This document shows, piece after piece, positions 12,304-64,000 of a stretch of DNA of 64,000 bases. The translations under genes and the position numbers were made by a program. The notes below the pieces were generated by a model. That model saw only the letters and a list, made by a program, of their open reading frames with translations. It had not been told where the DNA came from and did not search any database. The first letter of the stretch is position 1; each line of letters opens with the position of its first letter. The DNA is from Escherichia coli (GTDB lineage: Bacteria; Pseudomonadota; Gammaproteobacteria; Enterobacterales; Enterobacteriaceae), in assembly GCF_050320075.1 (NCBI RefSeq), contig NZ_CP190018.1, one strand, 5' to 3'.

Positions 12304-12690
12304 ATGGGTGTGTATAAGGCAAGACGATTCAGCCAAAGCACGAAAAAACTTGGTATTCACGATAAAGTTCTCATGGCTGCCGCTGAAGAAGTGATGCAGG
12401 GCATATGGGAGGCTGATTTAGGTAGCGGTGTCATCAAAAAACGTTTACCCCTCCAACAAGGAAAGAGTGGTGGAGCCAGAACAATTATCTTTTTTAAATC
12501 AGCAAATCATGTGTTTTTTTATGATGGTTGGTCCAAGAGTGGTCTAAGCAGTAAAGGAACCAAAGAAATCGAAGATGATGAACTGGCGGCCTACAAAAAA
12601 ATGGCAAATGCATTTCTGGCCTTTAGCAATAAGCAAATAGAGGATTTGATCGAAACTGGCTTTTTGATTGAGGTGAAAAATGAGCGATAA
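12304..12690 (+). CDS. RelE/HigB-2-like type II toxin (GKSGGAR motif)
   Basis: 128-aa ORF; motif QQGKSGGARTIIFF resembles recalled HigB-2/RelE-like toxins; precedes and overlaps an HTH antitoxin gene by 11 nt; absent from the K-12 rimO-dgcI interval. Confidence 0.75.
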   Translation: MGVYKARRFSQSTKKLGIHDKVLMAAAEEVMQGIWEADLGSGVIKKRLPLQQGKSGGARTIIFFKSANHVFFYDGWSKSGLSSKGTKEIEDDELAAYKKMANAFLAFSNKQIEDLIETGFLIEVKNER

Positions 12691-13009
12691 ATTACAAATG
12701 ATGCTGGAAGATGCAAAGGAACTGAATGCACTGGGCCTGATGTCTGATAGTGAAGTTGATGCCATTGCCGTCATGGTCAAAGCTCGTGAAGTCAGCGCCC
12801 GTATAGCCAAAGTCAAATCAATGACGGGTGAAGAGATCAAAGCCATCCGCACCCGATACGGCATGTCACAATCCGTGCTGGCACATACAATGGGAATGTC
12901 AAAAGAAAGTGTCTCGAAATGGGAACGAAATGAAATAAAACCGAGCGGCCCGGCACTACGTATTTTGAATACATTGGCAATAAAAGGGCCGGAAGTTTTT
13001 GCAAAGTAA
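12680..13009 (+). CDS. XRE-family HTH antitoxin (HigA-2-like)
   Basis: 109-aa ORF; C-terminal HTH (GMSQSVLAHTMGMSKESVSKWERNEIKPSGPALRILNTL); ATG lies inside the toxin gene 3' end. Confidence 0.75.
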   Translation: MSDKLQMMLEDAKELNALGLMSDSEVDAIAVMVKAREVSARIAKVKSMTGEEIKAIRTRYGMSQSVLAHTMGMSKESVSKWERNEIKPSGPALRILNTLAIKGPEVFAK

Positions 13010-13078: not shown

Positions 13079-14407
13079 CTACTGCCAGCTAATCTGTGCC
13101 CTGCCGTTTTTCTTACTCTTATACAGTCGCTCATCCGCCAGCATTTTCAAGCGTTCAACGGTAGGACATTCATTTGAATGCGCTACACCGATACTGGTGC
13201 TTAAATTAATGCTTCCCACCTGGAAATGAACAATTTCTTTTAGAATCGATAGCAACTCTTCCAGCGTTCCACCCGTATAAATCACCGCAAATTCGTCACC
13301 GCCGAAGCGGTAGACTTTACCTTTATCTACCGGGATCTGTGATTTAAGGATTTTCACCACTTTCATCAACACTTCATCGCCCAGCAAATGACCGAAAGTG
13401 TCGTTGATGTTTTTGAATTTATCGACGTCAAACAGGCACAAATATCCGCCTTTTTCCGGCAGGGCTTTTAAATCTTCGTCAAAGGATTTTCTGCCCATCG
13501 CTTTGGTCAGGTCATCCAGGAACGCCGAGTTATACAGACTGTAGAGTTTTTTGACATCGGCAGCTGAAAAGAAAAGCCCGCCATCCAGTACGCGTTCAAA
13601 ATGGTTATTAATGATGGCTTCTTTCTCCACAATACCACGATTAATCACTCTGCGTACCAGATAGAGGCAACTGACACCCGATATCACTGCCACCAATGCG
13701 GCAAAGAAAATAATCAATGTACAGACCCGCAAATAAACATCTTTTTTATACGCAAATACGTACAATCCGGTCGGCAAATAGGCGAAGTGCTCCATCGCTT
13801 CCGAAACGGTGAAGATGGCGTTTTTAGCATTAAATTCATCACCGGTCACCGGTTTACCGTTCTTAAACAGAGAGAACATCAGGTTCTCGCTATCCATCGC
13901 CAGCGATTTTGACAGTAAAGAAAAACGCTCCAGACCAAGCAAAAATATCAGACTACGATTATGAGTTACCGGATAGAGGTAATAGACGAAGGTTTTACCG
14001 TCAAAAGAGATAAACCCTGTATTTTTGACATGTCGATACTTCACAATCTGCATAATATCTGCACAATAATTTTTCTCGAACTCCTTTACCTGAATACATT
14101 CGTCACTGGAAATCAGATAAGGACCGACATCGTACAAATAAGAGGGTGAAACCGAGTCGGCGTAAGCTGTGCGCAAGCCAACCAACAGCTGTTCCTCCGT
14201 GGGATTTAGCGTGTTGATAAGATCAATTGCCACGCTACGCCGATATTCAGCAATATTTGCCACCGCAAAAGCAGTATCAATAACGGACTGTTTCAGGCCA
14301 TACACCCGTTCCTTTACCATTTGAGTGTAGATCCCGCAGGCAACTGCTGAAATCATGATAAAAATCAGCAGACTGACTGTAAGTACGAACTTATTGATTC
14401 TGGACAT
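13079..14407 (-). CDS. dgcI: Diguanylate cyclase DgcI (YliF)
   Basis: 442-aa ORF with N-terminal TM segments and GGDEF domain (RFGGDEF). Confidence 0.9.
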
Positions 14408-16487: not shown

Positions 16488-16502
16488 GGTAATGACTCCA
16501 AC

Positions 16503-17006
16503 TTATTGATAGTGTTTTATGTTCAGATAATGCCCGATGACTTTGTCATGCAGCTCCACCGATTTTGAGAACGACAGCGACTTCCGTCCCAGCCGTGCCA
16601 GGTGCTGCCTCAGATTCAGGTTATGCCGCTCAATTCGCTGCGTATATCGCTTGCTGATTACGTGCAGCTTTCCCTTCAGGCGGGATTCATACAGCGGCCA
16701 GCCATCCGTCATCCATATCACCACGTCAAAGGGTGACAGCAGGCTCATAAGACGCCCCAGCGTCGCCATAGTGCGTTCACCGAATACGTGCGCAACAACC
16801 GTCTTCCGGAGCCTGTCATACGCGTAAAACAGCCAGCGCTGGCGCGATTTAGCCCCGACGTATCCCCACTGTTCGTCCATTTCCGCGCAGACGATGACGT
16901 CACTGCCCGGCTGTATGCGCGAGGTTACCGACTGCGGCCTGAGTTTTTTAAATGGCGGAAAATCGTGTTGAGGCCAACGCCCATAATGCGGGCAGTTGCC
17001 CGGCAT
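16503..17006 (-). CDS. insB: IS1 transposase InsB (expressed as InsAB' by -1 frameshift)
   Basis: 167-aa ORF, matches recalled IS1 InsB. Confidence 0.9.
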
Positions 17007-17200
17007 CCAACGCCATTCATGGCCATATCAATGATTTTCTGGTGCGTACCGGGTTGAGAAGCGGTGTAAGTGAACTGCAGTTGCCATGTTTTACGGCAGT
17101 GAGAGCAGAGATAGCGCTGATGTCCGGCGGTGCTTTTGCCGTTACGCACCACCCCGTCAGTAGCTGAACAGGAGGGACAGCTGATAGAAACAGAAGCCAC
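16925..17200 (-). CDS. insA: IS1 InsA repressor
   Basis: 91-aa ORF beginning [40 protein letters not shown] (zinc-finger and HTH). Confidence 0.9.
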
Positions 17201-17255
17201 TGGAGCACCTCAAAAACACCATCATACACTAAATCAGTAAGTTGGCAGCATCACC

Positions 17256-31467: not shown

Positions 31468-32733
31468 ATGGCTTCTACTTTTACCAGCGACACATTGCCT
31501 GCCGATCACAAAGCAGCTATCCGTCAGATGAAGCACGCGCTGCGGGCGCAGCTTGGCGACGTCCAGCAGATCTTTAATCAGCTAAGCGATGACATTGCCA
31601 CGCGAGTGGCTGAAATCAACGCACTCAAAGCACAGGGCGATGCCGTCTGGCCGGTGCTGTCTTATGCCGATATCAAAGCAGGTCATGTTACTGCAGAGCA
31701 GCGCATACAGATTAAACGTCGCGGTTGTGCGGTGATAAAAGGCCATTTCCCCCGCGAACAAGCGCTAGGCTGGGATCAGTCGATGCTGGACTATCTGGAC
31801 CGCAACCGCTTTGACGAGGTCTACAAAGGCCCCGGCGATAATTTCTTCGGGACGCTCAGCGCTTCACGTCCCGAGATTTACCCCATCTACTGGTCGCAGG
31901 CGCAAATGCAGGCTCGCCAGAGTGAAGAAATGGCGAATGCGCAGTCGTTTCTCAATCGTCTGTGGACATTTGAAAGTGATGGAAAGCAATGGTTTAACCC
32001 GGATGTGAGCGTCATCTACCCTGACCGTATCCGCCGCCGTCCGCCCGGAACGACCTCCAAAGGTCTTGGAGCGCATACCGACTCCGGGGCACTGGAACGC
32101 TGGCTGCTTCCAGCGTATCAGCGCGTTTTCGCCAACGTCTTTAATGGCAATCTGGCGCAATATGATCCCTGGCATGCGGCACATCGTACGGAAGTTGAAG
32201 AGTACACGGTGGACAACACCACCAAATGTTCCGTGTTTCGGACATTCCAGGGCTGGACAGCGCTCTCTGATATGCTGCCTGGTCAGGGGCTGCTGCACGT
32301 CGTGCCCATTCCTGAAGCCATGGCGTACGTACTGTTACGTCCGCTGCTTGATGATGTGCCGGAGGATGAACTGTGCGGCGTAGCGCCCGGAAGAGTATTG
32401 CCGGTATCAGAGCAATGGCATCCACTGTTGATTGAGGCGTTAACCAGCATTCCAAAACTCGAAGCCGGAGACTCCGTCTGGTGGCACTGCGACGTCATCC
32501 ATTCCGTTGCCCCCGTTGAAAATCAACAGGGCTGGGGCAACGTGATGTACATTCCTGCGGCACCGATGTGCGAGAAAAATCTTGCCTACGCGCACAAGGT
32601 GAAGGCCGCACTGGAAAAAGGCGCATCGCCGGGCGACTTCCCGCGCGAGGACTATGAAACAAACTGGGAAGGACGCTTTACGCTTGCCGACCTCAACATT
32701 CACGGTAAGCGAGCGTTGGGAATCGACAGCTGA
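31468..32733 (+). CDS. ybiU: DUF1479-family protein YbiU
   Basis: ORF 31462..32733; ATG 31468 (MASTFTSDTLPADHK); 421 aa. Confidence 0.85.
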   Translation: MASTFTSDTLPADHKAAIRQMKHALRAQLGDVQQIFNQLSDDIATRVAEINALKAQGDAVWPVLSYADIKAGHVTAEQRIQIKRRGCAVIKGHFPREQALGWDQSMLDYLDRNRFDEVYKGPGDNFFGTLSASRPEIYPIYWSQAQMQARQSEEMANAQSFLNRLWTFESDGKQWFNPDVSVIYPDRIRRRPPGTTSKGLGAHTDSGALERWLLPAYQRVFANVFNGNLAQYDPWHAAHRTEVEEYTVDNTTKCSVFRTFQGWTALSDMLPGQGLLHVVPIPEAMAYVLLRPLLDDVPEDELCGVAPGRVLPVSEQWHPLLIEALTSIPKLEAGDSVWWHCDVIHSVAPVENQQGWGNVMYIPAAPMCEKNLAYAHKVKAALEKGASPGDFPREDYETNWEGRFTLADLNIHGKRALGIDS

Positions 32734-33803
32734 GTGTCGTACAGCCCTTCCCGTTCCACGGCGGTGTTCCCTTTTCCTGGGCGAACCCGCCGCACTGACT
32801 CCCGCACCGCCAATCGTCCGTGCAGCAGCAGCGAGCCCACCGGAGCATCCGGGCGAATCAGCCGCTGTTGCAACATTTGCACCGCTTCATTGCCTAGCTC
32901 ATCGCGTGGCACATGCACAGCCGTCAGGGGAACATCCTCGATTGCCGCAAGGTTAAAGCCGTCGATACTCATCACCGAGACATCCTGTGGTACGCGCAGA
33001 CCACGACGATGTAGCGCATTTACCGTTCCCGCCGCCATAAAATCCCCGCCGACCAGAAACGCCGTCGGCAACGTCTTGCCATTGGCGGCATCCAGCCACG
33101 CTCCGACCTTTTCTTCCGCTTCTTTAGCGCTAAAACTGCTGATATTCAGCAAATGACGGTCATGGTGAAAGGCCAGATTATGCTGACGCCATGATTCTTT
33201 AATCCCTGCAAACCGCTGCTCCATAGTGTAGCGGCGCAGGCACATCACATTCATCACCTCCCGGTGACCCATTTCAAACAGATAGCGGGCGGCGAACGCG
33301 CCAATTAACCGATGGTCCGGCGCAATCGCCGGGAGGCGCATTCGTTCATCACGGCAGTTGATCAGCACACAAGGCTTAGCGAGATCGGCGGCCAGATCAT
33401 GGATGTGCGGATCGTCAATCCCCAGCAGGATCGCCGCCTGCGTATCTGCTTCATTCATTCGCGAGAGAAATAGCGCGGGATCGCTGTCAAACTCCTCCAG
33501 CGCGCAGTAACGCAGCCGCACTTCATGCGGCGATAACGCTTTGCTGATGCTCTGGATCACACGGTAATAAAAGATATCAGATCGTTGGTCAAAAGCGCGT
33601 TGCGGCGCGAAAATAATCAGGTTGTTCAGCAACATACGACCTGCTGCCATGCCATCCATCACGCCCAACTCACGCGCGCAGGCCAGCACCTGTTCGCGAG
33701 CGCGTGCACTGGTATTCGCTTTGCCAGCCAGCACCCGCGAAACCGTACTCGGCGATAGCCCGGTACGTGCGGCGATATCGGCGATTTTCAGCTTCTTGTC
33801 CAT
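32700..33803 (-). CDS. LacI/GalR-family transcriptional regulator (accessory island)
   Basis: ORF 32700..33881; start set at ATG 33801-33803 (MDKKLKIADIAARTGLSPSTVSRVLAG, N-terminal HTH); periplasmic-binding-like effector domain; last ~11 codons are antisense to the ybiU 3' end; not present between ybiU and ybiT in K-12. Confidence 0.8.
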   Translation of the reverse strand: MDKKLKIADIAARTGLSPSTVSRVLAGKANTSARAREQVLACARELGVMDGMAAGRMLLNNLIIFAPQRAFDQRSDIFYYRVIQSISKALSPHEVRLRYCALEEFDSDPALFLSRMNEADTQAAILLGIDDPHIHDLAADLAKPCVLINCRDERMRLPAIAPDHRLIGAFAARYLFEMGHREVMNVMCLRRYTMEQRFAGIKESWRQHNLAFHHDRHLLNISSFSAKEAEEKVGAWLDAANGKTLPTAFLVGGDFMAAGTVNALHRRGLRVPQDVSVMSIDGFNLAAIEDVPLTAVHVPRDELGNEAVQMLQQRLIRPDAPVGSLLLHGRLAVRESVRRVRPGKGNTAVEREGLYDTQLSIPNARLP

Positions 33804-34097
33804 TTTGTGATCTGCCTCTAATTCGGAAATGACAGAATTTTCATGAGCAAAAAAGCCCATTCTGTCTGGCATTAAATCCATTTCAGTAATGTATATCAGT
33901 CACTCATGGAAAAACGTGCACAAAACCCGCTTTCTTTCGCTTTTAGGGTCTCTTACTGTGAATTGGTAGAACAACTTCCATACAAAAATAATGGAAAAAC
34001 GAACAATAAAGACTTTATTTATCAAAAAGTTAAAAGTGGTGTGACAACTCCATTCTGACGTTGCCACACAAACCCTATACCATTCTGTGGAGTGCAT

Positions 34098-35399
34098 ATG
34101 AGTCAGGGTATCAATAACGATATGACTGCCAGTAAACCGCGCCATATCGTCAAAAATCTGCGTTGGTGGATACTGGTCCTTTTTTTGCTCGGTGTTACTG
34201 TCAACTACATCACGCGTAACTCGCTGGGTATTCTCGCCCCCGAACTGAAAAGCAACCTGGGGATTACCACCGAACAATATTCCTGGATTGTAGGTGCTTT
34301 CCAGCTCGCCTATACCCTATTCCAACCGTTGTGTGGATGGCTGATTGACGTCATTGGCCTCAAACTGGGCTTTATGATCTGCGCGGGACTGTGGGCGCTG
34401 GCCTGTCTGATGCATGCGGGGGCGGGAAACTGGGTACATCTGGCGCTGTTGCGCTTCTTTATGGGCGGTGCGGAAGCCGCGGCAACCCCAGCAAACGCCA
34501 AAACCATCGGTGAATGGTTTCCAAAATCAGAACGCCCGATCGCCGCAGGCTGGGCAGGCGTCGGTTTTTCCATCGGTGCCATGCTGGCCCCACCGATTAT
34601 CTATTTTGCCCACGCTTCATTCGGCTGGCAGGGTGCATTTATGTTCACTGGCATCCTGGCGATGCTGTGGGTGGTGCTGTGGTGGGCGTTCTATCACAAC
34701 CCGGATAAGCATCCGAACCTCAGCAAAGCCGAGCTGGACTTTATCCGCCAGGATAACGAAGCGCCCCCGATTAAATTACCCTTTCTGACCGCACTGAAAA
34801 CCGTGGGCAAAAATAAACGCTTTTACGGTATCGCTATCCCGGCCTTTATGGCAGAACCGGCGTGGGCGGTGATGAGTTTCTGGGTGCCGCTATACCTGTC
34901 CAAAACCTATGGCATGGACCTGAAGCAGATCGCATTATTCGCCTGGTTGCCGTTCCTCGCCGCTGATCTTGGCAGTATTGCCAGCGGCTATCTGACCAAA
35001 CTTTACACCCGCCTGTTTGGGCTGAGTCGTGTGAACTCCGTTGTCGCATCATCGGTCAGTGGCGCATTCTTGATGGTTTCGCTGGCGGTGATGGCCTTTA
35101 CCAATAACCCGTATATCGCCATCGTCCTTATTTCCATCGGCGGCTTCGGTCACCAGATCATCTCCTGCATGCTGAGCGCACTGGTGGTGGAATCCTTCGA
35201 CAAAGGTCAGATGGCCACTGTTAACGGCATGCGCGGTTCTGCCGCGTGGATCGCAAGTTTCCTGTTCTCCCTGATTATCGGGGTTACCGCTGACAAAATC
35301 GGCTTTAACCCCCTGTTTATCGCCATGGGCTTCTTTGACCTGATTGGCGCTTTCTTCCTGGTCACCTTTATTGCTGAACGTCGCGCAAAACGCGCCTGA
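34098..35399 (+). CDS. MFS transporter, anion:cation symporter family (ExuT/DgoT-like)
   Basis: ORF 34092..35399; ATG 34098 preceded by GTGGAG SD; 12-TM MFS; strong similarity pattern to recalled ExuT (e.g. TRN, FQPLCGWLIDVIG, GGAEAA, EWFP, FAWLPFLAADLG). Confidence 0.8.
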   Translation: MSQGINNDMTASKPRHIVKNLRWWILVLFLLGVTVNYITRNSLGILAPELKSNLGITTEQYSWIVGAFQLAYTLFQPLCGWLIDVIGLKLGFMICAGLWALACLMHAGAGNWVHLALLRFFMGGAEAAATPANAKTIGEWFPKSERPIAAGWAGVGFSIGAMLAPPIIYFAHASFGWQGAFMFTGILAMLWVVLWWAFYHNPDKHPNLSKAELDFIRQDNEAPPIKLPFLTALKTVGKNKRFYGIAIPAFMAEPAWAVMSFWVPLYLSKTYGMDLKQIALFAWLPFLAADLGSIASGYLTKLYTRLFGLSRVNSVVASSVSGAFLMVSLAVMAFTNNPYIAIVLISIGGFGHQIISCMLSALVVESFDKGQMATVNGMRGSAAWIASFLFSLIIGVTADKIGFNPLFIAMGFFDLIGAFFLVTFIAERRAKRA

Positions 35400-35413
35400 G
35401 AGTGGATGTAAAC

Positions 35414-37777
35414 ATGAAAACGCTGAAAAACTGGACCCTGCACAAACAGTCTGCCCACCACGTTGAACTGCTGGTCGATGGCCAGCATATCCTGTGCCTG
35501 TACGTGCTGGAAGAAAATCTGTTCCGCGTGCTGTTAAAACGCAAAGGCGAGCTGGCGCTGGATCGCACCTGGAGCATTGCTCCGGCGCAGGATGTGCCAT
35601 GGGAAGGGCGCAGCCGCGAAGATCTCAGCGGCTTTAGCCTGCCCGCGTGGACATTGATCCAGCACGACGACACCGTGGTTATCGCCACCGAGTCACTGCG
35701 TGCCACCGTTCACCAGCCGCTGTGGCTGGAGTGGCACTATCGTAACAACGAAGGCGAATGGCTGCCGTTGGTGAATGACCGCCCGACCAGCGCTTATCTG
35801 CTGAATGCCCACGGCGATGGCGTGGCACACTATCAGAGCCGTCGTAAAGATGAACGCTTTTATGGCCTCGGAGATAAAGCCGGCGACCTGCAACGCAACG
35901 GTAAACGTTACGAGATGCGTAACCTCGACGCGATGGGCTACAACGCCGTTAGTACTGACCCGCTGTACAAACACATTCCATTCACCATCACCCGCCGCGA
36001 TGACATTAGCTTCGGCCTGTTTTATGACAACCTCAGCAGCTGCTGGCTGGATCTGGGCAACGAGATCGACAACTACCACACCGCCTATCGCCGCTGGCAG
36101 GCGGAAGCGGGTGATATCGACTACTACCTGTTTACCGGCGAACGCGTACTTGATATCACCAAAGCCTTCGTACGCCTGACCGGCAAAACCCTGTTCGGAC
36201 CGAAATGGAGCCTGGGCTACAGCGGTTCAACTATGCACTACACCGATGCGCCGGACGCACAAAATCAGTTGATGAACTTTATCCGCCTGTGTGAAGAACA
36301 TGCGATTCCCTGCGATTCGTTCCAGCTCTCTTCCGGTTATACCTCAATTAACGGCAAGCGCTATGTGTTCAACTGGAATTACGACAAAGTGCCGCAGCCG
36401 AAAGTGATGAGCCAGGCATTTCACAATGCTGGTTTGCACCTGGCCGCCAATATCAAGCCGTGCCTGTTGCAGGATCACCCACGCTATAACGAAGTGGCAG
36501 AAAGAGGACTGTTCATCCGTGATTCAGAAACAGATGAACCAGAACGTTCCAGCTTCTGGGATGACGAAGGTTCTAACCTCGACTTTACTAATCCGCAGAC
36601 CATCCAGTGGTGGCAGGAAGGCGTGACCACACAGCTTCTGGAGATGGGTATCGACTCCACCTGGAACGACAACAACGAATTCGAAGTATGGGACGGTGAA
36701 GCACGCTGTCACGGCTTTGGTCAGACGATCGCGATCAAACATATTCGCCCGGTGATGCCACTGCTGATGATGCGAGCCTCGATGGAAGCCCAGCAACGTT
36801 TCGCTCCGGAAAAACGTCCGTACTTGATCTCCCGCTCCGGCTGCGCGGGAATGCAGCGCTATGTGCAGACCTGGAGCGGCGATAACCGCACTAGCTGGGA
36901 CACTCTGCGCTACAACACCCGCATGGGTCTGGGGATGAGCCTCTCCGGGCTGTATAACCTCGGTCACGACGTCGGCGGTTTCTCCGGTGATAAGCCGGAC
37001 CCGGAACTGTTTGTACGCTGGGTACAAAACGGCGTGATGCATCCGCGCTTTACGATTCACTCGTGGAACGATGACCATACCGTAAACGAACCGTGGATGT
37101 ATCCGGGCGTCACTCCGGCGATCCGCAGCGCTATTGAGTTGCGCTATCGCCTGCTGCCCTACTTTTATACCCTGATGTGGCAGGCATACGCCGATGATGA
37201 ACCAATGCTGCGTCCGACTTTCCTTGACCACGAGCACGACGTTCAGACTTTTGAAGAGTGTGATGACTTCCTGCTTGGTCGCGATATTTTGGTTGCCAGC
37301 GTCGTAGAGCAAGGCGAGCGCCAGCGCCGTGTATGGCTGCCAGATAACGAAACTGGCTGGTACGATTTCTACAACGGCGAATGGTTCAGTGGCGGTCAGT
37401 GGATCACCCTCGACGCACCGCTGGAGAAACTGCCGCTGATGGTGCGTGCCGGGGCTGGTCTACCGCTCAGCAAACGCATCACCTATGTGAGCGCAGAACA
37501 AGACGATACCCGCGAACTGAAACTGTTCCCGCTGAAAGGTGTGGGCACAACGTCCGGCCTGCTGTTTGAAGACGATGGCGAAAGCTGGGGCTACCAAACT
37601 GGTAATGCGCTTTGGGTGGAATGGGAAATGGTTTGCGATGGGGCGACCATCAACCTGAAAGTCAACGCGCGCGGGGATTATCGACCTGCATGGAGTGCAC
37701 TGAAAGTGTCATTACCAGTGGAAGAAAAACGCACGCTGCTGGTCAATGGTGTTGAAGGGAGTGAATGGATGCGTTAA
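35414..37777 (+). CDS. Glycoside hydrolase family 31 enzyme (alpha-glucosidase-like), specificity unknown
   Basis: ORF 35402..37777; ATG 35414; GH31 signature regions WNDNNEF (nucleophile region, cf. WIDMNE), QTWSGDNRTSW (acid/base region), GHDVGGF. Confidence 0.8.
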   Translation: MKTLKNWTLHKQSAHHVELLVDGQHILCLYVLEENLFRVLLKRKGELALDRTWSIAPAQDVPWEGRSREDLSGFSLPAWTLIQHDDTVVIATESLRATVHQPLWLEWHYRNNEGEWLPLVNDRPTSAYLLNAHGDGVAHYQSRRKDERFYGLGDKAGDLQRNGKRYEMRNLDAMGYNAVSTDPLYKHIPFTITRRDDISFGLFYDNLSSCWLDLGNEIDNYHTAYRRWQAEAGDIDYYLFTGERVLDITKAFVRLTGKTLFGPKWSLGYSGSTMHYTDAPDAQNQLMNFIRLCEEHAIPCDSFQLSSGYTSINGKRYVFNWNYDKVPQPKVMSQAFHNAGLHLAANIKPCLLQDHPRYNEVAERGLFIRDSETDEPERSSFWDDEGSNLDFTNPQTIQWWQEGVTTQLLEMGIDSTWNDNNEFEVWDGEARCHGFGQTIAIKHIRPVMPLLMMRASMEAQQRFAPEKRPYLISRSGCAGMQRYVQTWSGDNRTSWDTLRYNTRMGLGMSLSGLYNLGHDVGGFSGDKPDPELFVRWVQNGVMHPRFTIHSWNDDHTVNEPWMYPGVTPAIRSAIELRYRLLPYFYTLMWQAYADDEPMLRPTFLDHEHDVQTFEECDDFLLGRDILVASVVEQGERQRRVWLPDNETGWYDFYNGEWFSGGQWITLDAPLEKLPLMVRAGAGLPLSKRITYVSAEQDDTRELKLFPLKGVGTTSGLLFEDDGESWGYQTGNALWVEWEMVCDGATINLKVNARGDYRPAWSALKVSLPVEEKRTLLVNGVEGSEWMR

Positions 37778-37784
37778 ATCATTA

Positions 37785-59070: not shown

Positions 59071-60033
<963 letters not shown>

Positions 60034-60060: not shown

Positions 60061-62211
60061 TTAACGCCGCCGACGGCGTGGGGATTTCGTTTTTTCTTTC
60101 TTTTTAACTATACCTTCAGGGACTTCCGGTTGCTCTATCGGAAATACCGGTAATGCATCCAGTAGCCGCTTGCCGTAGTTTTTGGTGAGCAAGCGTTTAT
60201 CGTAAATCACCACTTCGCCCCAGCAACCGTGGCTTCGAATCAGTCGCCCAACCTGCTGAATCAGGTTAAACGAGGCGCTCGGCAGGCTTTGCACCTCAAA
60301 CGGATAGCGGTTGAGGCTTTTCAGCCATTCCCCTTCGGTGATCACCACGGGGCTGTCGATGGGCGGAAAAGCGATTTTGTGGATATGCACCTGGCTGAGC
60401 AGATCGCCTTTCAGATCAAGCCCTTCGGCAAATGACTGTAAGCCCACCAGCACGCTGCGCTCACCGTTGCCGACGCGTTTGCGGTGCAGTTCAACTAAAC
60501 GGTAACGCGGCTGATCGCCCTGCACCAGCAACATCAGGCGTAAATCCGTCACATAGTCGAGAAACCGCTGCATCGCCCGTCCGCTGGCAAACAGTACCAA
60601 CATACCGAGATGTTTTTTGCTCTCCACCTGCTCACGGAAAAAGGCTGCCATTTCAGCAATGTGCTGCTCTTCGTTGTCGATGGAAGGCTCAAAGCGCATC
60701 CGGGGAATAACAATTTTGCCCTGTTCGCAGTGGTTAAAGGGCGAATCCAGCGCCACAAAGCGGTCGCCCGCTTTCTCTTTCAGACCACTCATCTCCTGCA
60801 AACGCGAAAAACTGTTCAGCGAACGTAAGGTCGCGGAATTGACAATAATGTGCGGAATACTGCGCCACAGCAGCCTTTCCAGCTGATCGCTGACACGAAT
60901 ACCCACACAGTGAAACCAGAGATGCAGCTGCCCTTCGCGCTCTTCCCGCGTCGCCCATTTGGTCACCGGCGCACCGGAAGATTGCGCCAGAGACGCCAGC
61001 CGCCAGAGTTTGCTTTGCGCCTCGAACATCCCCAGCGCGCGATTCATCTGCAAAATCAACCGATGCAGACGTACAATGTCATGGCTGCCGGTTTTCTCAC
61101 TTAAATCGTTAAGAAATAACTCCGCCAGGCCACGCAGCATCTCGGTGAGTTTTGCCAGCCGCTGGCAGATCTCCAGCACTTCATCTGGCAGTTCGCCCAT
61201 CGCAAAACGGTGCTCTGCCTCCTGCCCGGCAGGCATGTAGAGATTGAGAATGTTGTTTAACGAGGCGATAAGCTCATACAACTCTTCACAATGCGCATTC
61301 AAACGTTCAGGGATCGCCAGCGGCGGGATGGTCTTCGGGCGAAACTGCTCCATGCAGGTAGCGACCAGTTTCGTGAACAAGTCCAACTGTAGTCGATACC
61401 ACGGCGCGGTGATTTCGGCACTCATCTCCAGCGCATCCCGCGCCACATCTGGCAGGTGATGACCTTCGTCCAGCACCAGCAGCAAATTTTTCGGGTCAGG
61501 CAATACGGCTTCGCTTTCCATCGCCGCCATCACCAGCGCATGGTTTGCCACCACCACTTCCGCTTCCTGAATCTCCCGACGAGCGACAAAAAACGGGCAT
61601 TCGCGATAGTAATAACAGTTGCGGTTGAGGCAGCTGGCTTTGTCGGTACTTAAACGACGCCAGAGATCGTCATCTATAGCGATATCAGTATGATCGCGCA
61701 GACCATCCCATTTATAAGTGTCGAGATCGCCCTTCAGCTTCGCACAACGTTTTTGCTCTTCCTGATTATTTGGCGTCAGTTCGTCGTCAAGAAACGCCAG
61801 CAGATCCTGTTGCGTGGGTTCAGTGCTGGCGAGCGCCGTCAGATTACGCGGGCAAACGTAGCGCCCACGCCCAAAAGCGGCAGTGAATTTAAGATCGGGA
61901 ATGATCTTTTTCAGCAGCGGTAAATCTTTGCTGTAGATCTGATCCTGCAATGCCACGTTGGCGGTACTCACCACCAGCGTTTTTTGCTCTTCGCGGGCAA
62001 TGGCGATGCCGGGAATCAAATAAGAGAGCGTTTTCCCAACGCCGGTGGGGGCTTCAATCGCCAGATGCCGCCCTTCTTCTCCGGCCAGCGTTTTGGCGAC
62101 GTCCGCAATCATCTGCCGCTGCGGCGCACGGGGAATAAAGTCGGGGATCTGTTCCTGAAGCGCCTTATACCAGGCGGCAATTTGCGCTTTAAGCGCGGCG
62201 GTTAATGCCAT
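60061..62211 (-). CDS. dinG: ATP-dependent DNA helicase DinG (SOS-inducible, Fe-S)
   Basis: 716-aa ORF; Walker A (APTGVGKTLSYL), DEGHH box and four-Cys Fe-S cluster region. Confidence 0.9.
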   Translation of the reverse strand: MALTAALKAQIAAWYKALQEQIPDFIPRAPQRQMIADVAKTLAGEEGRHLAIEAPTGVGKTLSYLIPGIAIAREEQKTLVVSTANVALQDQIYSKDLPLLKKIIPDLKFTAAFGRGRYVCPRNLTALASTEPTQQDLLAFLDDELTPNNQEEQKRCAKLKGDLDTYKWDGLRDHTDIAIDDDLWRRLSTDKASCLNRNCYYYRECPFFVARREIQEAEVVVANHALVMAAMESEAVLPDPKNLLLVLDEGHHLPDVARDALEMSAEITAPWYRLQLDLFTKLVATCMEQFRPKTIPPLAIPERLNAHCEELYELIASLNNILNLYMPAGQEAEHRFAMGELPDEVLEICQRLAKLTEMLRGLAELFLNDLSEKTGSHDIVRLHRLILQMNRALGMFEAQSKLWRLASLAQSSGAPVTKWATREEREGQLHLWFHCVGIRVSDQLERLLWRSIPHIIVNSATLRSLNSFSRLQEMSGLKEKAGDRFVALDSPFNHCEQGKIVIPRMRFEPSIDNEEQHIAEMAAFFREQVESKKHLGMLVLFASGRAMQRFLDYVTDLRLMLLVQGDQPRYRLVELHRKRVGNGERSVLVGLQSFAEGLDLKGDLLSQVHIHKIAFPPIDSPVVITEGEWLKSLNRYPFEVQSLPSASFNLIQQVGRLIRSHGCWGEVVIYDKRLLTKNYGKRLLDALPVFPIEQPEVPEGIVKKKEKTKSPRRRRR

Positions 62212-62225
62212 GAGAAAACCTGAAA

Positions 62226-62245
62226 TACTGTATAAACAGCCAATA
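62226..62245 (-). promoter_or_regulatory. LexA (SOS) box of dinG
   Basis: Minus-strand TATTGGCTGTTTATACAGTA matches my recollection of the non-canonical dinG SOS box (TTG-N10-CAG); 15 bp upstream of the dinG ATG. Confidence 0.7.
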
Positions 62246-62381
62246 TTGTGGCATTTTTCGGTTTTCAGGGGTAATGGTTTTTCTGTTTCTGGAAAGCGGC
62301 TCGCAATAACGTTTTCCGGATGTGAAGTTTTCTCGCGGCAGAAGAAACATCATTGTGCAGCAAAAGACATTGTACATCAGC

Positions 62382-62663
62382 TTATTCCGCTGGCGGCCAT
62401 TGCAGAGCGGTATGTAAAACACGCAGTACCGAGAGCGTATCGCCCTCCACTTGATAGACAAGCACATAATGCGGCCTGACAACGGCTTCATGTGTACCAG
62501 CGACTCGTCCGGCCCGGTACATCTCCGGGCGTTCACAGGCCTGTTCCGCAATGGCTTCAAATTGATTATCAAGGGCTATTGCCGCTAGCGGATTATCTTT
62601 ACTGATGTATTCCATGATTTGCTCCCTGTCAGACAGGGACATTGGCTTCCATTCCAGACGCAT
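62382..62663 (-). CDS. ParE/RelE-superfamily toxin-like protein (accessory; occupies the K-12 ybiA position)
   Basis: 93-aa ORF; ParE-like features (N-terminal LSDREQIMEYI, central GR, C-terminal VLVYQVEGDTLSVLRVLH); start overlaps the upstream gene stop (TAATG). Confidence 0.7.
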   Translation of the reverse strand: MRLEWKPMSLSDREQIMEYISKDNPLAAIALDNQFEAIAEQACERPEMYRAGRVAGTHEAVVRPHYVLVYQVEGDTLSVLRVLHTALQWPPAE

Positions 62664-63103
62664 TAATCCCCCTTCAGCAAGGCTTTTTTACGGGCAGCAA
62701 ATAGACTTTTGGCCTCTTCATGAGAGAGTGCCGGGCGTGGATCGTCAATGGCGGCCTGCACCTGCTCTCGAAACCAGGCATCATACGCGGCAGCTTCATG
62801 AGCTCGTTTTAATGCCTCAGCCCTGTCTGGTCGGGTCGTTTTCTTCTGACCGTCCGGGTCGTAATTAGAGGCGTCGACTTCAAACCGGGCAATACCAACA
62901 TCTTTCAGGTAGTTGACAACCGTTTCCAGCCGTTTGAACAGGCGGATTTGCCGACTGCGTTGTGCTGCAAGAGGCCGTTCAGTGTGGCCGTATTTCACGG
63001 TCAACGACCAGCCTCCCTGGGTGCCAATAACGTGTGCTGCATCCACTACGCCAGATTCAACCAGTTTATGTAAGGTTGAGTGATCGATCGTTTCTGGTGC
63101 CAT
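62663..63103 (-). CDS. Hypothetical 146-aa protein, presumed cognate partner (antitoxin or regulator) of the ParE-like toxin
   Basis: ORF translationally coupled to the toxin gene; charged helical C-terminal region (RPDRAEALKRAHEAAAYDAWFREQVQAAIDDP...); N-terminal ~90 aa unassigned; much longer than typical ParD/Phd antitoxins. Confidence 0.6.
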   Translation of the reverse strand: MAPETIDHSTLHKLVESGVVDAAHVIGTQGGWSLTVKYGHTERPLAAQRSRQIRLFKRLETVVNYLKDVGIARFEVDASNYDPDGQKKTTRPDRAEALKRAHEAAAYDAWFREQVQAAIDDPRPALSHEEAKSLFAARKKALLKGD

Positions 63104-63130
63104 AATGCGCTAACCTCTTTGTATACAGCA

Positions 63131-63208
63131 TGCAATTTATAATTAAAGATAGAGCAATTAATAATAAATTGCAGCACCTTGATCGTAAATTGCCCAGGAT
63201 AAAATTGC
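63131..63208 (-). promoter_or_regulatory. Putative promoter/operator of the ParE-like module: dyad plus direct heptamer repeats
   Basis: TGCAATTTAT (63131-63140) and ATAAATTGCA (63164-63173) form a perfect 10-bp inverted repeat 23 bp apart; further AAATTGC copies at ~63188-63194 and ~63202-63208; AT-rich. Confidence 0.4.
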
Positions 63209-63232
63209 GGTAGAAAGAGACTTGTTGCGAAG

Positions 63233-63253
63233 ATGCCGGGCATCGCCCGGCAT
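63233..63253. other. Hairpin immediately 3' of rhlE
   Basis: ATGCCGGGC-ATC-GCCCGGCAT perfect 9-bp stem; no U-tract. Confidence 0.4.
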
Positions 63254-63259
63254 AAAAGA

Positions 63260-64000
63260 TTACTGCGCAGCGGCAGGTTTACGCGGACGGCGGCGACGTT
63301 GTTGTTCGCCTGCCGGTTTGGCATCGCCGAGACGACGAGACGGTTTTTCTGCGGGCTTCGCGTTACCAGACTTCGCACCACTTTCCGCACGGCGTGGTTG
63401 CTGTTGACCGCGACCACCACCTTGCCCACGACCGCCGCCGCCACGTTGCTGGCGACCGTTCTGGATCGGTTCGGCTTTGATTGACGGGTCCGGCTCATAA
63501 CCCGGAATCGCAATGCGCGGGATCTCTTTTTTCAGCAGTTTTTCGATATCACGCAGCAGTTTGTGTTCATCAACACACACCAGCGACAACGCTTCACCGG
63601 TAGCAGCCGCACGACCGGTACGCCCGATACGGTGGACATAATCTTCCGGTACGTTTGGCAGTTCATAGTTGACCACGTGCGGCAGCTCTTCAATATCCAG
63701 GCCGCGCGCAGCGATGTCAGTTGCCACCAGTACACGAATATCGCCCGATTTAAAATCAGCCAGCGCACGGGTACGCGCACCTTGCGATTTATTGCCGTGG
63801 ATCGCCGCACTACGGATGCCATCTTTATTGAGCTGTTCAGCCAGATGGTTAGCGCCATGTTTGGTACGGGTAAACACCAGCACCTGCTGCCAGTTCCCTT
63901 TCCCAATCATGTGCGACAACAATTCGCGTTTGCGTTTCTTATCAACAAAGTGAACATGCTGGGTCACCTGATCAGACGCGGTATTGCGGCGTGCCACTTC
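63260..64000 (-). CDS. rhlE: ATP-dependent RNA helicase RhlE, C-terminal part (gene starts beyond window end)
   Basis: ORF 63260..63997 open to window edge; DEAD-box helicase C-terminal domain (HRIGRTGRA) and Arg/Gly-rich basic tail. Confidence 0.85.

Follow-up and report, generated by a model that had tools for sequence, protein, structure and literature searches.

A toxin–antitoxin cassette in the place of ybiA, directly upstream of the SOS gene dinG in Escherichia coli and apparently without a terminator between them

Where a toxin–antitoxin module lies directly in front of an SOS gene and on the same strand, does transcription leaving the module pass into that gene, and is the adjacency then a regulatory circuit or only a by-product of how the locus came to be assembled? 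The question is raised by one end of the window, by which we mean the whole stretch of 64,000 nucleotides of Escherichia coli DNA that was analyzed (contig NZ_CP190018.1). On the minus strand the order there is rhlE (partial, to 63260), a frame of 146 aa, a frame of 93 aa, dinG and ybiB, and all five genes are co-directional. The features from which the argument starts are the following.

59071–60033, minus strand: ybiB, on the same strand as dinG and 27 nt 3' of it.
60061–62211, minus strand: dinG, ATP-dependent DNA helicase of 716 aa (ORF list; NF008729 DinG equivalog, 1048.8 bits).
62226–62245, minus strand: the LexA (SOS) box of dinG, TATTGGCTGTTTATACAGTA, identical to the published dinG SOS box (PMC3009722).
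62382–62663, minus strand: ParE/RelE-superfamily toxin of 93 aa (ParE_toxin PF05016, 51.9 bits, cut-off 23).
62663–63103, minus strand: antitoxin of 146 aa (PaaA2 PF21217, 40.9 bits, cut-off 27, residues 104–130).
63233–63253, minus strand: terminator-like hairpin of rhlE, ATGCCGGGCGATGCCCGGCAT, −16.4 kcal/mol, without a U-tract; the last sequence shared with K-12 on the rhlE side.

The TAA stop codon of the toxin gene occupies 62384–62382, and 170 nt separate it from the ATG of dinG. The spacing from the stop to the LexA box, 62246–62381, is 136 bp, and the box begins 137 nt past the stop on the same strand. A preliminary description of the locus had given the stop at 62382, the box at 62226–62245 and a 136-bp gap between them; checked against the sequence and the ORF list, these coordinates and the arithmetic are exact.

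The identity of the module is clear from its domains. The toxin also matches the RelE_StbE model TIGR02385 (38.5 bits against a cut-off of 27.9), and RefSeq already labels the pair as a PaaA2-family antitoxin and a RelE/ParE-family toxin. Of the two genes, that of the antitoxin leads, and its stop codon shares a single base with the start codon of the toxin gene (TAATG). The C-terminal domain of the antitoxin is the toxin-binding domain of PaaA2 and aligns with PaaA2 chains 3zbe and 5czf. The N-terminal domain, of about 80 residues, carries a ParC-like label that is weak (PF28031, precomputed; NF041544 at 33 bits, which is below its cut-off), and the family of this ParC-like domain has at least 900 members. 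A Foldseek search with the AlphaFold model (pLDDT 79) returned no PDB match to the N-terminal domain below E 0.02. The dN/dS ratios are 0.03–0.12 for the antitoxin and 0.07–0.16 for the toxin, and with ratios this low both genes must have been maintained by purifying selection. As judged from sequence, the module is probably a functional two-gene type II toxin–antitoxin cassette, with a ParC-like/PaaA2 antitoxin and a ParE-family toxin.

Among known systems, paaR2–paaA2–parE2 of the E. coli O157:H7 prophage CP-933P (PDB 5cw7, 3zbe) supplies the nearest solved relative of the toxin, ParE2 (E 1.7e-6, residues 5–90), and the toxin-binding region of PaaA2 aligns with the C-terminus of the antitoxin (E 2e-4). 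As in the window module, the antitoxin gene leads and overlaps the toxin gene. The prophage system has a third gene, the regulator PaaR2, whereas only two genes stand between rhlE and dinG. The antitoxin of the window has an extra N-terminal ParC-like domain in its 146 aa, whereas PaaA2 is described as being without any DNA-binding domain (PMC8630535). The window module also lies in the chromosomal backbone rather than in a prophage, and identity between the toxins is low. Since the regulator gene is absent and the antitoxin has an added domain, the module is not a three-gene system of the paaR2–paaA2–parE2 kind, and its antitoxin, an example of a PaaA2-type protein with an N-terminal addition, is relevant to a question raised in the literature, whether PaaA2 once had a DNA-binding domain and lost it (PMC8630535). 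Plasmid modules in Klebsiella, Salmonella and Yersinia have the same architecture of 441 nt plus 282 nt at about 70% nucleotide identity. Those copies are plasmid-borne and presumably addiction modules, whereas the copy in the window is single, chromosomal, at a fixed site and long inherited.

How the module came to face dinG is seen by aligning the window with K-12 and a third allele, which divides the locus as follows.

62311–63232, minus strand: cassette-specific DNA, 922 bp.
62311–62381, minus strand: 3' tail of the cassette, 71 nt from the toxin stop to the junction; the most variable segment of the locus.
62212–62310, minus strand: retained dinG control region, 99 bp, identical to K-12.

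In K-12, the place of the cassette is taken by REP elements, ybiA and some 20 bp of DNA upstream of that gene. Homology to K-12 on the rhlE side stops directly past the hairpin ATGCCGGGCnATGCCCGGCAT. On the dinG side, it restarts at GTTATTGCGAGCC, 99 bp before the dinG ATG. The flanks of the K-12 locus are identical to those of the window allele, including the last 99 bp before dinG with the LexA box, but what lies between them is different. There, dinG has as its neighbor the divergent, SOS-induced gene ybiA, which codes for a NADAR N-glycosidase and starts, on the opposite strand, with an ATG some 20 bp past the junction; rhlE is followed by REP elements. With ybiA divergent and the REP elements in place, no close-by transcription is aimed at the dinG promoter in K-12. 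With the REP elements and the convergent ybiA gone after the rhlE hairpin, rhlE, the module, dinG and ybiB all point in one direction. Transcription continuing from rhlE past the hairpin at 63233–63253 is likewise conceivable. The preliminary description missed this context: its reading that the gap lacks an intrinsic terminator stands, as detailed below, but it overlooked that the cassette had replaced a divergent SOS-induced gene. In the searchable literature we found no description of the cassette at the rhlE–dinG site or of its relation to the dinG promoter.

The cassette occurs in 324 of 5426 complete E. coli genomes (~6%), many of them human clinical isolates, and in each of the 324 it is a single chromosomal copy that is always at the rhlE–dinG site. 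The copies are close to that of the window, 236 at 99% identity or more and the other 88 at 95–99%. Intact ybiA is found in 3429 of the 5426 genomes, and at least some of the remaining ones have a truncated NADAR pseudogene in the rhlE–dinG interval. The interval therefore exists in E. coli in at least three states, namely ybiA, truncated ybiA and the toxin–antitoxin cassette, from which it appears that ybiA is dispensable and that the site has been recurrently remodelled. The 170-nt gap between toxin and dinG is kept in five diverged E. coli alleles. The order rhlE, module, dinG is also found in Escherichia whittamii, where colinearity extends over 4.3 kb (93.6% identity) and the gap is about 170 nt, and in a third lineage, represented by a contig from run SRR10097270, that is 85% identical and has the same arrangement and again a gap of about 170 nt. 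To judge by its alleles, the cassette is old and under selection.

The junction between cassette and retained DNA marks a sharp change in the rate of divergence. Eight alleles differ at 4 of 82 alignment columns (5%) of the retained 99 bp, and E. whittamii differs from the window at one position (99% identity). This near-invariance holds also where ybiA was lost long ago, and it sits beside a tail in which 31 of 72 columns vary among eight alleles (43%). The third codon positions of the two module genes vary in 29–34% of cases, and the identity of the tail to that of E. whittamii, 81.7%, matches the dS of the module, 0.17–0.20. By these comparisons the tail is drifting at about the neutral rate, which argues that no terminator, nor any other element, is being held there by selection.

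Within the retained region, the LexA box is of the CTG-N10-CAG type with 15 of 20 consensus matches and one core mismatch, and it is the only LexA-like site that a scan of 62150–63300 detected. One of the few positions of the retained region that vary among the alleles falls in the degenerate half of the box (TATTGG, TAATGG, TAGTGG). The box overlaps a predicted promoter for dinG.

62227–62254, minus strand: candidate dinG promoter (predicted), with −35 ATGCCA (62254–62249), a 16-nt spacer and −10 TACAGT (62232–62227).

The score of this candidate is 7.8, at about the 75th percentile of background. The near-invariant stretch also includes 62256–62310, upstream of the predicted dinG promoter.

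For the module itself, a candidate promoter with a better score lies upstream of the antitoxin gene.

63161–63189, minus strand: candidate sigma-70 promoter of the module, with −35 TTTACG (63189–63184), a 17-nt spacer and −10 TATTAT (63166–63161).
63131–63193, no strand assigned: operator-like repeats, with a 16-nt inverted repeat at 63131–63146 and 63158–63173 that is 94% complementary.

The promoter has a PWM score of 11.5, which exceeds the 95th percentile of best scores in stretches of 231 nt, and it aligns with the TTTCTG/TTTTTG-17-TATAAT of the plasmid homologues. A third copy of the GCAATTTA type is found at 63179–63193, and the operator-like repeats overlap both the −10 and the −35 of the module. 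Promoter and palindromic operator are both kept in plasmid copies that are only about 70% identical. Because the conserved palindrome overlaps the promoter, we infer that the promoter is autorepressed, the usual type II design. The module promoter was free of LexA boxes in the LexA-site scan of 62150–63300, so transcripts reading through from it would be initiated independently of LexA.

We then come to what might stop a transcript between the toxin and dinG. A consensus terminator scan of the minus strand over 62212–62400 found none, and the fold of 62200–62400 (201 nt) is no better than that of its shuffles (z = −0.55). A scan for a hairpin followed by a U-tail gave one best candidate, which straddles the toxin stop codon.

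62359–62403, minus strand: best terminator-like candidate, an interrupted 37-nt hairpin and tail, CUUUUGCU, with the stem at 62403–62367 and −8.6 kcal/mol.

Its equals or betters are found in 45 of 150 and in 63 of 200 random 190-nt segments of the window (30–32%), and an RNAalifold consensus of seven alleles reaches −5.96 kcal/mol, its covariation term of +0.41 meaning no covariation. On the strength of that background frequency and the lack of covariation, we reject the hairpin at 62403–62367 as a terminator. In sister alleles the hairpin across the stop codon is stronger (−12 to −13.5 kcal/mol) and its tail reads CUUUUUCU. Candidates of this level are found in 7–12% of random segments, and in those alleles the hairpin could terminate a fraction of transcripts. 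An Rfam search of 61800–63500 at permissive E-values gave no match. In the four plasmid copies checked, no module-linked terminator was found in the next 185–355 nt, and in two of the four an unrelated gene on the same strand follows within 185–212 nt of the module.

The preliminary description had seen no convincing stem plus U-tract terminator in the gap and had named terminator prediction on the minus strand as a check. The prediction, when run, yielded no strong terminator and a best candidate at chance level; the two scans, the z-score of the fold and the comparison of eight alleles all agree with the original claim. By these criteria, a canonical intrinsic terminator is absent between toxin and dinG. 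Without a dedicated terminator for the module, polymerases leaving it would enter the dinG control region. Operons that have no terminator of their own and run into the promoter of a neighbor are commonplace.

Two other possible features of the gap were considered and set aside. The first is a complementarity between the tail and the start of dinG.

62320–62340, minus strand: 21-nt segment complementary to the dinG ribosome-binding site and AUG (62226–62206), with a duplex of −20.5 to −21 kcal/mol.

In a read-through transcript, this pairing would be expected to hide the dinG start from ribosomes: the initiation region of dinG has a predicted probability of being unpaired of 0.56 in the native transcript, versus 0.10–0.18 in transcripts starting at 62345 or 62381. 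In two sets of shuffles, a duplex as strong arose in 2 of 500 and in 3 of 300. The same pairing is at −16.6 to −17.3 in other E. coli alleles and at −14.1, which is background, in E. whittamii and the third lineage. It is rejected as a conserved element because it is weaker or at background in the sister alleles, and the complementarity is either lineage-specific or, as seems probable, due to chance. The second is a frame of 62 codons running across the gap from an ATG at 62377, which we take to be spurious on our reading of the alignment, since sister alleles do not have its start codon and the tail that it crosses is so variable.

There remain two ways in which transcripts might be lost that need no intrinsic terminator. 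One is Rho. The minus-strand RNA of 62338–62253 is A-rich and unstructured with a C/G ratio of 1.77–1.91, and the value of 1.91 for 62330–62253 is at about the 96th percentile of 78-nt windows. A RhoTermPredict-like criterion selects 62338–62261; it also selects 31% of random segments, and hence is unspecific. The 170 nt of untranslated RNA is enough length for Rho loading. The other is the LexA operator itself. LexA is listed in reviews among natural elongation roadblocks, and in quantitative work on LacI it was polymerases started at weak promoters that were halted most efficiently, with Mfd then removing them (PMC10310618, PMC4132739). The dinG operator lies downstream of the independent module promoter, in its path and on the same strand. 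By analogy, the module promoter, if autorepressed and with LexA sitting on the operator ahead of it, would fit the weak-promoter regime. LexA roadblocks and tandem promoters such as that of uvrB likewise have a LexA operator in the path of an upstream LexA-independent promoter. The case here differs in that the upstream promoter is a predicted one and drives an operon that is unrelated and came in by horizontal transfer; the dinG operator is also asymmetric, with one half-site degenerate.

The account that we consider best, and to which we attach moderate confidence, combines these elements. The cassette would have replaced ybiA and the REP elements between rhlE and dinG, bringing its own promoter and no terminator. 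Polymerases that pass the toxin gene would then run into the dinG promoter and the LexA operator. The flux from the module is probably low owing to the autorepression of its promoter, and most of what there is would probably be lost, either to Rho acting along the untranslated 170 nt or, in uninduced cells, to LexA as a roadblock. What is left would be a small, LexA-independent addition to transcription of dinG and ybiB, and control of dinG would rest essentially with its own promoter and LexA. What we infer in this account is the activity of the module promoter and its autorepression, the action of Rho, the roadblocking and how much read-through there is. Because the module took the place of a divergent ybiA, the simplest view of the adjacency is that it arose as a by-product when ybiA was replaced at a polymorphic site, and not as a selected regulatory circuit; we see no evidence for selected coupling.

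The alternative that survives best is that dinG is completely insulated. All transcripts would end before or at the dinG promoter, through the combined action of the weak stop-codon hairpin with its U-rich tail and of Rho on the untranslated stretch in which C exceeds G. We think this possible and somewhat unlikely. It can draw on the candidate at 62403–62359 with its stronger versions in sister alleles, on the C/G ratio and predicted Rho site described above, and on an untranslated RNA that is long enough for Rho. It has to contend with a hairpin in the window that does no better than some 30% of random segments and shows no covariation, and with a rut criterion about as undiscriminating. Moreover, the left arm of the hairpin is inside the coding region, where a terminating ribosome would compete with folding, and the nearly neutral drift of the tail speaks against any element being kept there by selection.

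A second alternative turns the interaction around and concerns what became of the ybiA promoter. Since the ATG of ybiA lies only about 20 bp past the junction in K-12, that promoter must lie in the retained 99 bp, and the following candidate was found there.

62220–62249, plus strand: candidate orphaned ybiA promoter (predicted), CTGAAA, an 18-nt spacer and TATTGT, with a start near 62256; overlaps the LexA box.

After bleomycin, ybiA rose 2.7-fold alongside SOS genes (PMC3305319), and the orphaned promoter is probably under LexA control. In the window allele, this SOS-inducible promoter may now be firing antisense into the 3' end of the toxin gene. As an explanation of the arrangement, the proposal would be that the LexA-controlled promoter fires at the toxin gene during SOS and that antisense RNA, or convergent transcription colliding with read-through from the module, lowers the toxin. 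We regard this as distinctly improbable. The necessary position of the promoter, the induction of ybiA with the SOS genes and a plus-strand candidate overlapping the LexA box all favor it, as does the near-invariance of the retained region even in lineages that have long been without ybiA. That conservation is accounted for equally well by the regulation of dinG, however, and the match of the candidate is weak, at about the 75th percentile of background. The supplementary tables of SMRT-Cappable-seq and Term-seq had no entries for K-12 start sites or 3' ends of ybiA, dinG or rhlE.

A third alternative is that the coupling of module to dinG was itself selected. The toxin would damage DNA by way of a topoisomerase and so induce SOS, LexA cleavage would lift the roadblock, and derepressed transcription of the module would run into dinG and ybiB, tying the supply of helicase to the toxin. 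The arrangement and its gap of ~170 nt are kept in subsets of E. coli, in E. whittamii and in the third lineage, and that it has lasted in three lineages is also consistent with selection for coupling; in addition, the terminator is absent, and overexpression of the related ParE2 induces SOS (PMC8630535). A fixed position is to be expected anyway from vertical inheritance or from recombination of the flanks, though, and about 94% of complete E. coli genomes are without the module. The tail at the junction is neutral, a topoisomerase is only a putative target of the toxin in the window, and in the ParE2 system transcriptional activation did not release the toxin (PMC8630535). We therefore hold selected coupling to be very improbable. 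Least probable of all, by a little, is a full SOS-gated circuit, in which LexA on the dinG operator would be a conditional terminator of the module transcript, and its cleavage upon damage or by action of the module's own toxin would release module transcripts into dinG and ybiB and the ybiA promoter antisense into the toxin gene, so that helicase supply and toxin dosage would both be tied to one operator.

On the reading that we prefer, in which the adjacency is a by-product and little flux reaches dinG, the main value of the locus as the evidence stands is descriptive: a polymorphic rhlE–dinG site, an old and apparently selected cassette, and a two-domain antitoxin. If read-through were substantial, carriers would gain a LexA-independent component of DinG and YbiB that rises when the antitoxin is degraded, and the locus would be a natural case in which an addiction module gained by horizontal transfer has rewired an SOS gene.

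The window contains several other features away from this locus. At about 32700–37780, between ybiU and ybiT, the annotation of a near-identical strain shows a LacI-family regulator, an MFS transporter and a GH31 glycoside hydrolase, genes that are presumably absent from K-12 at that place. A second toxin–antitoxin pair lies on the plus strand at 12304–13009, between rimO and a diguanylate cyclase gene. It has a higBA-like order, a RelE/ParE-family toxin of 128 aa (12304–12690) followed by a helix-turn-helix protein of 109 aa (12680–13009). A 768-bp copy of IS1 is found at 16488–17255. Compared with strain CFSAN061763, which is otherwise 99.9% identical, this IS1 is on the other side of a 3175-bp segment and is itself inverted. 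In CFSAN061763 the IS1 interrupts the diguanylate cyclase gene, and in the window that gene is intact (13079–14407).
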